From: a virus
DNA: 39,922 nt
UHGV virus genome: UHGV-1470964
Reading direction: 5' to 3' (one strand)
A program made the position numbers. Positions 8,797-11,700 of the stretch are shown piece after piece (positions within the stretch are counted from its first letter, which is position 1; each line of letters starts with the position of its first letter).

Positions 8797-11700
8797 TAAG
8801 ACATTCCCGCTCTTACACATCCCAGCCCTGAAAAAGGGCATCAAATTAAACCACACCTATGGTGTATGCATTTATTTGCATACATTCAATCAATTGTTAT
8901 CTAAGGAAATACTTACATATGGTTCGTGCAAACAAACGCAACGAGGCTCTACGAATCGAGAGTGCGTTGCTTAACAAAATCGCAATGCTTGGAACTGAGA
9001 AGACAGCGGAAGCTGTGGGCGTTGATAAGTCGCAGATCAGCAGGTGGAAGAGGGATTGGATTCCAAAGTTCTCAATGCTGCTTGCTGTTCTTGAATGGGG
9101 TGTCGTTGACGACGACATGGCTCGATTGGCACGACAAGTTGCTTCGATTCTCACCAATAAAAAACGCCCGGCGGCAACCGAGCGTTCTGAACAAATCCAG
9201 ATGGATTTTTAACTACTTTCTATGGAGTTAATTATGGCAAAAAAACCTACACCAGACCAGGTAAAAAAGATTCGTTCCGGCATTACCAAGAAAATACGGT
9301 TTGAGGTTTTCAAGCGCGATGGCTTCAAATGCCAGTACTGTGGGAGTTCTGCGCCAGACGTCATCCTTCATGTCGACCATATCAACCCAGTTAGCAAGGG
9401 TGGCGATAACGACATGATGAACCTTATTACTTCTTGCGATAGTTGTAATGGCGGGAAAAGAGACAAACTGCTCAGCGATAATTCAATAATGGAAAAGCAA
9501 AGGCAGCAACTCCAGGAACTTAATACCAAGCGAGAGCAACTGGAGATGATGATCAAGTGGCGAGATGGTCTTAAGAGCCTGAAAGACGATGTTGTTGATA
9601 TTGTCGCTACCAAAATTGACGACTGCATTGCGCCATTTACTGTTAATGACAATGGGCGAAAATCTATCAAGAGATGGCTTCGAATATATAAGCTTGAAGA
9701 AATACTCGATGCGATTGAGATTGCTGCAGACAAAAAACTCACCCAAGAAATAACCCATGAGCTTACTGGTGAATTCTTTGAGTACATCCCTCGCATAGCA
9801 GCGACAAAAAGAAAACCGCCAAAAGAACAAAGGATTCTATACATCAGAGGAATCCTTAAAAACCGCATATATATCAATCAAAACCATGTAATGAGTTATC
9901 TCAAGGCATGGCTTTCATACGACTTAGATCTCGATGAACTTACTGAGTTTGCGAAAACAGTACCTAACTGGACAACGTTCAAGGAGTGGGTATCTGAACG
10001 CATTCGTGAAGCTCAGGAAGAACTCCCGTACTAAAGGTGGACAAAATGGCACGTTCAAGAAATATCAAACCAGGCTTTTTCACCAATGATGAATTAGCTG
10101 AGTGTTCTCCATATGCCCGTCTCCTTTTTGCCGGGTTATGGACTATTGCTGACAAAGAAGGGCGGTTGGATGATCGCCCAAAGAAAATTAAAGCAATGGT
10201 ACTGCCTTTCGATGATGTGGACTGCAATGATCTGCTTCAGCAGCTTCACAGTCACAAATTCATCAACCGATATCAGGTAAATGGCGGCTCATATATCCAA
10301 ATCAATAACTGGAAAAAGCACCAGAACCCTCACTGCAAAGAAGCAGCCAGTGAGATACCAGAACCAGTAGAGAACAATAACAGCACCATGCAAGTACAGT
10401 GCAAGGACGATAAAGAGGAAGAGAAGGAGGATGCCGAATCACTACAAGTCATTGAAAACAATGAAGTACCAGAAAAGCACCATGCAAGTACAGTGCAAGA
10501 ACCAGTAGAGAACAGTTTAAATCCTGCTGATTCCCTTAACCTGATTCCTGATTCCCTTAACCTGATTCCTGATTCCCTTTCTAACACCCAAGCCGCTGAC
10601 GCGACTTGTGAAGGGGGTGTGGCTGATGTCCATAAAATTTCAAGTCGCTATGCATTCGAAGGAAATATCGTTCGGTTAAACCACAAGGACTACGAAGCAT
10701 GGAAGCGCCTGTATCCGAACATTGACCTGAATTACGAACTGGAAAGGCTGGATATCGAATTTAGCCATGAGAAGCCAAAGAACTGGTTTATCACTGCCAG
10801 CCAGAAACTCAGCTACCAGAACAAGCAGGCGTTATCCAGACCGGTACGCAAGGTTGCTAATGGACTTAAGGCTGAAAACTTTGCCACCAAAGATTACGGA
10901 CAAACTGAAATGCCTTCATGGGCGCAGGAGTGAACATGACGCTGGATGAAAAGATCTCCCAACTGGAGAAAAAACTTGCAGAATTGAGTTCTCCGCCAAT
11001 TGCTATCGAGCATACATCTGTAGAAATTGGCACTGGCATCTGTGAAAAACATGGTGAGTTTGAGCAGCGTAACCGTTACTCGACTGGGCCAATTAAGTTT
11101 GCCTCAAGACCTAGCGAATGCCCGGAATGCATGAGAGATAAGCTTATTCGGCTACAGGCAGAGAAGATTAAAATCGACGAGGAATCACGTAAGCGCAATG
11201 TCGAGTTTCTGTTGAATAATCTTGATATTCCTGAACGATTCAAGGGTTGCACACTACAGAACTACGAGCCAGTCAACGACGATGCAAAGAGAGTGCTCAG
11301 GGTGTGTCAGGCGTACGCCAGCAAATGGCCTGAGAGGTTACAGAAAGGCGGTGGGCTGGTTATGTGTGGAAAGCCTGGTACTGGAAAGAATCATCTTGCA
11401 CTGGCTATCGCCCGGCACGCAATTACGGAACATCAAAGCTCAGCTATTTTCACAACGGCGCTGAAAATTGCCAGAGAATATAAATCAACATGGTCGAAAA
11501 ACTCCACCCGCACAGAGGATGAAGTGATCCGACAGTTCACTAAACCTGACCTGCTAATTATCGATGAGGTTGGTGTGCAGTTTGGAAGCGAGGCGGAAAA
11601 GATGATCATGTTCGAAATCATCAACACCCGCTACGAGCGCATGAAGCCAACAATCCTGATTAGCAACCAGAGCAAAGATGAACTGTCTGCATTCATTGGT

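Follow-up and report, generated by a model that had tools for sequence, protein, structure and literature searches.

What is a gene for an HNH nuclease doing between the cII gene and the replication genes of a lambdoid phage? In the virus genome UHGV-1470964, a stretch of 39,922 nucleotides (the window), such a gene lies at positions 9234–10034 of the plus strand. It encodes a protein of 266 amino acids (aa) in which an HNH domain is followed by a C-terminal domain (CTD), and we refer to it as the HNH-CTD gene. A sequence-only reading had taken it for an insertion at the point where a regulatory block of the lambda type meets a foreign replication module, and perhaps for a homing endonuclease that promoted the exchange of that module, or for an accessory nuclease. 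We tentatively prefer to interpret the gene as a mobile nuclease cassette that resembles homing endonucleases and is specialized for one site, directly upstream of phage replication initiator genes.

An exchangeable slot upstream of the initiator gene

How constant is the arrangement found in the window? We surveyed 81 loci encoding close relatives of its initiator (68–99% amino acid identity), and scored the gene directly upstream. The HNH-CTD gene occupies this slot in 13 of them. In 57 it is replaced by the gene for a T5orf172/MUG113 protein (GIY-YIG-like; Pfam E = 2e-16), in 10 by that for a 134-aa protein of unknown function (phrog_30464), and in one, the Hafnia phage yong1, by that for a beta-clamp-like protein. 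None of the 81 slots is empty. Since the gene is replaceable, and absent from most close relatives (68 of the 81, with initiators 68–91% identical), these comparisons exclude a core component of the replication machinery. A single chance insertion is excluded as well, given that the synteny holds across phyla. Thus the earlier claim of an insertion holds insofar as the gene is exchangeable between sister phages, but not as a single event into an empty junction of the cII–O type, since no close relative is empty and the family is tied to unrelated initiator families across phyla.

Comparison with relatives that lack the gene places the bounds of the cassette at its own ATG and that of the initiator gene (rep). 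In carriers of different occupants the DNA similarity breaks off at the occupant start codon (~9236), and it resumes exactly at the rep ATG (10045/10046). The flanks of swapped cassettes are 92–96% identical, and the initiators of sister phages with other occupants share 90–96% DNA identity. The right-hand recombination joint is the conserved 5′ end of rep (10046–10075, plus strand), encoding MARSRNIKPG, where the homology to relatives carrying the T5orf172 or 134-aa gene begins again. Mapped onto the initiator tree, the occupants are intermingled, with the HNH form in at least five separate places. The alternation of HNH and T5orf172 recurs independently in Pseudomonas phages of the JBD44 type, where initiators at least 98% identical are preceded either by an HNH-CTD gene or by that for a 132-aa T5orf172-only protein. 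Sporadic presence at a fixed locus, a hallmark of homing endonucleases, is therefore found in both the 81-locus and the Pseudomonas sets. A nuclease-free state is seen in relatives with initiators no more than 65% identical, where only open reading frames (ORFs) of 56–80 aa lie upstream.

The other occupants vary among themselves. The enteric T5orf172/MUG113 genes (loci L094, L097 and L105–L165, at ~2240–3000) encode 200–250 aa with a variable C-terminal part, and those of Pseudomonas phages (L254 and L256–L259, 2603–3001) encode 132 aa comprising the nuclease domain only. The invariant residues GWVY...KxGMT...R...E..H...REFF suggest that the T5orf172 slot proteins are active. The 134-aa occupant has no detectable domain (L002, 2598–3002, HK639_53; also L096, L098, L102, L104 and others). 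That of yong1 (L003, 2456–2992; 178 aa) has a weak match to the central domain of DNA polymerase III beta, and its annotations conflict, the PHROG label of phrog_3007 being 'RusA-like resolvase'. As candidate divergent CTDs the HK639 and yong1 proteins were set aside, BLASTP showing no similarity, and a relationship between the CTD and the C-terminal part of the T5orf172 slot proteins was ruled out (hhalign probability 1%).

Signatures of exchange and constraint

The exchange of occupants is accompanied by a distinctive pattern of variation in the adjoining sequence. Loci L247 (HNH) and L254 (T5orf172) differ at six synonymous positions within rep codons 1–9, and then at five in ~1200 nt. Codon 2 of the enteric rep genes tracks the occupant, being GCA with HNH, GCT or GCC with T5orf172 and GCC with the 134-aa gene, and this places the right-hand joint within the highly conserved rep 5′ end (MAR[S/A]RNIKPG). 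A co-conversion tract, or target-site polymorphism, would be expected to leave such clustering. The HNH-CTD and rep genes also have discordant histories, since at L130 and L135 the HNH genes are near-identical (synonymous divergence, pS, of 0.04) and the rep genes far apart (pS 0.61).

The protein is nevertheless under strong constraint. Between the window gene and that of L130 synonymous divergence is saturated (pS 0.79), but non-synonymous divergence (pN) is only 0.058. The ratio of non-synonymous to synonymous substitution rates (dN/dS) is 0.04–0.13 in both the HNH domain and the CTD (about 0.05 for the protein), below that of rep. The gene appears to be dispensable all the same, given the nuclease-free distant relatives and one frameshifted copy. 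The latter (L305, 1651–2169), in a prophage of the draft genome Escherichia coli GCA_022541795.1, is interrupted after residue 117, with cII, initiator and loader genes intact; the frameshift is either decay or a sequencing error.

On the left, the cassette is bordered by cII (8919–9212; Pfam Phage_CII, E = 1.7e-48). Similarity to lambda, 434 and HK633 stops at ~9205–9208, the end of cII, which confirms the position proposed for the gene at the joint between regulatory block and foreign replication module. A terminator scan identified an oop-like antisense hairpin in the 3′ end of cII (9161–9188, minus strand), placed as in lambda and forming the conserved left flank of the cassette. Similarity to lambdoid phages, and to relatives with other cassettes, spans this hairpin and ends between ~9205 and ~9236. 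By lambda spacing the left edge of the cassette (~9234–9237) would coincide with the expected 5′ end of oop, and any oop promoter would therefore fall inside the variable cassette.

The gene is AT-richer than its flanks, as had been noted, although the difference is modest: its GC content is 42.2% (40.7% in the C-terminal part), where cII has 48.6%, rep 44.9% and the window as a whole 50.0%. Among 801-nt windows it ranks in the bottom 2.3%.

An HNH nuclease with a helical C-terminal domain

The reading frame (9222/9234–10034, plus strand) has two candidate starts. ATG 9234 is that used in RefSeq and in phage Louie, and is preceded by a GGAG Shine-Dalgarno sequence (9224–9227) 6 nt to its 5′ side; the alternative ATG 9222 has no Shine-Dalgarno sequence of this kind. 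The gene was assigned from the ORF call, Pfam, PHROG and the alignment of homologues, and its product is 100% identical to the copy of E. coli PD7 and 99.6% identical to that of Louie.

The clear HNH motif reported from the sequence proves to be complete. The Pfam HNH family (PF01844) matches at aa 33–77 (E = 2.3e-13), as do HNH_5 and HNH_4. The domain spans aa 14–81 (9273–9476, plus strand), with CxxC, DH, N and CxxCN elements, and has the DH/N/N active site and CxxC...CxxC pairs of the HNH (His-Me finger) superfamily. C33, C36, D48, H49, N63, C68, C71 and N72 are invariant across 44 aligned homologues, so that the catalytic and zinc-binding residues are intact. This is the H–N–N variant also found in Cas9 and IscB, in which DH provides the general base, the last residue of the motif is Asn, and CxxC occurs as two pairs. 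IscB is the top domain-level match in NCBIfam. Yet the likeness does not go beyond the domain (60 bits, where the cutoff is 175), and there is no RuvC domain, bridge helix or guide RNA context.

Beyond the HNH domain runs a single long helix (aa 82–131; 9477–9626, plus strand), seen in the AlphaFold2 model and in the alignment, which carries the invariant REQLEMM-WR motif including R100, Q102, M105 and W109. It leads into an all-helical CTD of eight helices (aa 132–266; 9627–10031, plus strand), in which Y203, G206, I207, R211 and W246 are invariant. The model, built with a family alignment, has a pLDDT of 87.8 for the full length and 96.4 for the C-terminal part, with values of ~90 or more from residue 90 onward, and the strands and helix of the HNH domain are present. 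PHROG 16986 matches the full length (E = 1e-150; residues 11–259 against profile positions 1–248 of 248); it is labelled 'unknown function', and public records say 'HNH endonuclease'.

What, then, is the C-terminal domain? No Pfam family matches residues ~82–266, bearing out the earlier description of an uncharacterized domain, at ~185 rather than ~190 aa. Across Pfam, PHROG, NCBIfam, PADLOC and PDB sequence and profile searches, nothing was found past the HNH domain except its own PHROG. A Pfam match to Imm6 (E = 0.02) fell below the cutoff and was dismissed as chance, and a kinship with the C-terminal domain of the initiators, considered from the alignment of the neighbours and its F..FW..YP.K motif, looked unfounded. 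Foldseek gave no significant match to the CTD in BFVD; below significance, the proteins matched were again replisome organizers, G39P and DnaB_2. Of natural structures, the CTD is best matched by the DnaD, G39P and replisome-organizer folds.

The invariant helix Y203-x3-I207-x3-R211 resembles the DDBH2 motif, YxxxIxxxW. In comparison with the DDBH2 domain of DnaD and DnaB (PF07261) and the N-terminal domain of SPP1 G39P, the CTD lacks a sequence match to Pfam DnaB_2 or to PDB sequences, has arginine in place of the final tryptophan of the motif, and possesses an extra three-helix subdomain containing the invariant W246. The model is thus suggestive of a DnaD-like subdomain within the CTD, found at the level of fold and not of sequence, and such a fold could bind DNA.

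A CTD-only isoform starting at the invariant Met-Met (aa 105–106) was considered because several database proteins begin there. At that position in the window GGAG abuts the ATG, leaving no usable spacing. The short database proteins (P0123, P0127, P0130 and ~15 other representatives) have 160–180 aa comprising the CTD only, and may reflect truncation of the gene, errors of gene calling or a genuine short form.

Could the protein be an ordinary HNH nuclease with another known role, such as a helper of cos cleavage like HK97 gp74 or a restriction or defence enzyme, or else an inert remnant? It matches models of PtuB, ZorE, McrA and type II restriction endonucleases at the level of the HNH domain, and HNH proteins are common in packaging modules (PMC3592412). 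A role in defence was rejected, as no PADLOC model is matched at full length and the HNH-level matches (E = 6e-8 or weaker) are confined to residues ~7–110. Like gp74 it is a small phage HNH protein beside an essential machine, of a kind that has been read either as a functional partner or as marking a homing-endonuclease hot spot. Unlike gp74, it belongs to the replication and not the packaging module, has an extra 185-aa domain, and is carried by P22-like phages without a cos-cleavage context. A packaging function was likewise rejected, the gene lying between cII and the initiator in an early replication operon and not beside terminase or cos; in matching genomes the terminase genes are about 9–10 kb or more downstream. 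An inert remnant is excluded by the strong purifying selection and the intact motifs. We therefore consider this whole group of explanations very improbable.

A widespread family linked to replication initiators

How general is the association with replication genes? The HNH-CTD family has >1,500 matches in a database clustered at 90%, and the CTD alone retrieves 1,222 cluster representatives at 50% identity, nearly all of them ~250-aa proteins with both HNH domain and CTD. At 37–57% identity the family extends over more than 12 phyla, among them Proteobacteria, Firmicutes, Bacteroidota, Planctomycetota, Acidobacteriota, Verrucomicrobiota, Cyanobacteria/Melainabacteria, Actinomycetes, Chloroflexi and Patescibacteria. 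The homologues in annotated phages of Pseudomonas (JBD44 gp1), Oenococcus (Krappator27) and Vibrio are each encoded directly upstream of an initiator or DnaD-like gene. The paper on the Oenococcus phage Krappator annotates its homologue merely as 'HNH endonuclease' beside a replisome organizer. Our literature searches found no paper describing the family, its DnaD-like domain, the linkage to initiators or an alternating nuclease slot.

Among 80 IMG/VR loci, nearly all with sufficient room have an ORF of 250–340 aa whose start lies at −41 to +24 nt relative to the end of the HNH gene, measured from its stop codon, so that the two genes often overlap. The proteins encoded there fall in several PHROG families labelled as replication initiation, O-like or DnaD-like, and have a mean pairwise identity of 13%; 75 of 79 join labelled initiators in single-linkage BLAST clustering. 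The association is looser for chromosomal loci of more distant phyla, of which ~30 are linked, and a variant of ~425 aa with an additional C-terminal extension often has no initiator neighbour. Homologues of ~417–443 aa are seen in Bacteroidota, Melainabacteria and Patescibacteria (L191, L194, L199, L204, L215, L217, L222, L223, L227 and L233, at ~2990–4290); these have a ~170-aa extension and a changed end to the CTD, often with no adjacent initiator ORF on the same strand. Of 5,426 complete E. coli genomes, 18 have the HNH gene and 18 the full-length initiator, and the listed accessions overlap.

The two functions are also found within single polypeptides. PHROG 5718 ('HNH endonuclease', 394 aa) contains the initiator N-terminal domain at profile positions 1–121 and HNH at 109–224, and PHROG 8130 joins the initiator N-terminus to T5orf172. 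Genes of 183–209 aa that combine the initiator N-terminus, a domain of the origin-binding type, with a second HNH domain, in an arrangement like that of Odn, occur at L025 (4731–5282), L027, L275–L277 and L172 (3774–4403), directly after the HNH-CTD gene; that of L025 precedes a full-length initiator. The 363-aa initiator of L079 (4762–5853) is itself interrupted by an HNH domain, which separates its N-terminal domain from the C-terminal one, and it is encoded directly downstream of an HNH-CTD gene. Pfam and PHROG searches found no initiator-like domain in the HNH-CTD protein of the window, which is therefore not a single-chain nuclease of the kind exemplified by Odn of phage ICP1.

These associations lend themselves to a functional explanation. 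The HNH-CTD and T5orf172 proteins could be trans-acting nuclease subunits, recruited through the DnaD-like domain to the initiator, the origin or the helicase-loading complex as accessories to replication. A nick or break made there might, for example, process forks stalled at the initiator-bound origin, or start sigma or recombination-dependent replication, and the mobility of the cassette would in that case amount to the usual mosaicism of lambdoid phages, with functional analogues replacing one another. The near-obligate synteny with initiators of several families across phyla is in keeping with this, as are the Rosetta-stone fusions phrog_5718 and phrog_8130, the internal HNH of the L079 initiator and the structural resemblance of the CTD to replisome-organizer folds. 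So too are the stronger purifying selection on HNH-CTD than on rep, the constant filling of the slot in close relatives, mostly by nucleases, and the co-occurrence of the HNH gene with this rep in 18 E. coli genomes. We judge this explanation somewhat unlikely, yet a serious competitor of the one that we prefer, and the accessory nuclease of the original suggestion is to that extent still a live alternative.

The fusion genes bear on another possibility, that the nuclease is a weapon against other replicons in the manner of Odn, attacking the origins or replication intermediates of satellites, resident prophages or co-infecting phages with related initiators. Attack on competing elements would favour the carrier phage. 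Odn comprises a T5orf172 nuclease and a RepA_N origin-binding domain, and cleaves the PLE origin (PMC8263062, PMC10448857). Genes fusing the initiator N-terminus to HNH right after the HNH-CTD gene (L025, L027, L275–277 and L172) and early lytic expression from the pR operon would suit such a role. But the window protein itself lacks an origin-binding domain, the elements that it might target are hypothetical, the carrier would have to protect its own origin, and tight coupling to its own initiator is not something that the model requires. This makes an anti-competitor function decidedly improbable in our estimation.

Elements of these proposals can be combined. The initiator might guide the HNH-CTD or T5orf172 protein to the origin, where a cut would switch replication from theta to a rolling-circle or recombination-dependent mode in lambdoid and P22-like phages; the same cut in co-infecting genomes would drive the exchange of replication modules, and the fusions would be the single-chain form. 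We regard this scheme as doubtful.

A proposed homing-endonuclease-like cassette

How might the cassette move? If it does so in the manner of a homing endonuclease, the HNH nuclease, predicted to be active and joined by the long helix to the helical DnaD-like domain, would be expressed early from pR along with the initiator. It would make a nick or a cut in related genomes present in the same cell, carriers of a rival cassette among them, and would do so within or beside their initiator gene or origin region. The cassette would be copied in by recombinational repair, across the rep 5′ end on the right and across the end of cII and oop on the left, and the mosaic joint at 9205–9236 and 10046 would be created and maintained in this way. 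We infer all of the cleavage target, the homing itself, the benefit to the phage, the choice between nick and double-strand cut, and the partner. On these terms it is plausible that the gene promoted the module swap, as was originally suggested.

We favour homing because the HNH occupants are polyphyletic, because they are exchanged with ORF precision for members of a recognized class of homing endonucleases, because the histories of nuclease and initiator are discordant, and because polymorphism is clustered in the flank. The AT-richness relative to the flanks, the position at a module boundary, the independent recurrence of the HNH/T5orf172 alternation in the Pseudomonas phages and the dispensability suggested by nuclease-free distant relatives and the frameshifted copy point the same way.

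Several observations weigh on the other side. All slots of the close relatives are filled, so that a naive target allele is not evident among them. Ordinary homologous recombination within the conserved rep 5′ end would account equally well for the clustered synonymous differences. The CTD is not a known DNA-binding module of homing endonucleases, and as it is conserved across phyla while the initiators diverge to the low mean identity given above, recognition of the sequence of the neighbouring gene is unlikely. Overlapping HNH stop and rep start codons suggest co-expression as a unit, and a dN/dS lower than that of rep suggests a function that matters to the phage. Homing, accessory and anti-competitor roles are not mutually exclusive. 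Barth et al. (2023, PMC10448857) treat T5orf172 proteins as phage homing endonucleases found beside essential genes; they describe the same general phenomenon for T5orf172 and HNH genes of lytic phages, and warn that bioinformatics does not separate homing from domesticated functions. Casjens and Smith's group have urged like caution for lambdoid HNH genes.

The closest parallels are the free-standing homing endonucleases of phages, such as Mob and Seg of T4 and the T5orf172 and IPA-HNH proteins of ICP1 and T5 (PMC10448857). In both cases a nuclease gene stands beside an essential gene at an exchange boundary. They share a sporadic distribution in close relatives, the alternation of HNH and GIY-YIG enzymes at one locus, and polymorphism clustered at the insertion point. 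The HNH-CTD protein differs in that its second domain is helical and DnaD-like, and not a zinc finger, AP2 or NUMOD module. It is tied to one class of neighbour, the initiators, whatever the sequence of that neighbour, with no empty site in close relatives. Its context is that of temperate lambdoid and P22-like phages, and homing is here a proposal. With Odn (Barth et al. 2021, PMC8263062) it has in common the link between a nuclease of homing-endonuclease type and an initiator or origin recognition, with single-chain forms among relatives and neighbours. In contrast to Odn, the window protein has no origin-binding domain in cis, adjoins its own initiator, is not aimed at a known satellite, and has an HNH rather than a T5orf172 domain.

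The adjoining replication module

The partner gene of the cassette, rep (10046–10933, plus strand), encodes the replication initiator of 295 aa, and is separated from the HNH stop codon by an 11-nt spacer that holds its Shine-Dalgarno sequence, AGGTGG (10035–10040, plus strand). It was identified from matches to phrog_17247, 16167, 1408 and 270 ('replication initiation protein'), and its start at ATG 10046 is backed by RefSeq and by the alignment of homologues. A candidate origin lies within the gene (10344–10590, plus strand), by analogy with the lambda origin in the O gene. A search for repeats found two 47-nt direct copies (10362–10408 and 10456–10502) with a hairpin in each, and 21-nt iterons CTGATTCCCTTAACCTGATTC at 10527–10579. 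The latter encode a DSLNLIPDSL linker, and the peptide DSLIPDSL is found also in initiators of Pseudomonas phages. The rep repeats are likely to be origin iterons.

Downstream follows a DnaC-like helicase loader gene (10918–11781, plus strand; RefSeq start equivalent to 10936; Pfam IstB_IS21, E = 1.8e-18; phrog_50), and next a Ren/MarR-like gene. A second mosaic joint is seen at ~10874–10936, where the similarity of phages N7 and mEpX1 and of many E. coli prophages to the window is limited to the final 60 nt of rep and the DnaC-like gene. From this joint it follows that the loader module recombines independently of the initiator.

Implications

If our interpretation is correct, the position ahead of the initiator genes in temperate lambdoid, P22-like and Pseudomonas phages is a slot dedicated to nucleases, where the unrelated HNH-CTD and T5orf172 families compete or substitute for one another. 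It would define a widespread family that is at present labelled only 'HNH endonuclease' or 'unknown function', and would extend the occurrence of nucleases at exchange boundaries from lytic phages of the ICP1 and T4 type to temperate phages. Should the nuclease act together with the initiator at the origin, this would bear on the start of sigma-mode replication. The BASEL phages Louie and Dewey are culturable carriers, so that the proposal is directly testable. It would provide a testable mechanism for the classic mosaic joint of the lambdoid phages, the boundary between the immunity and replication modules.

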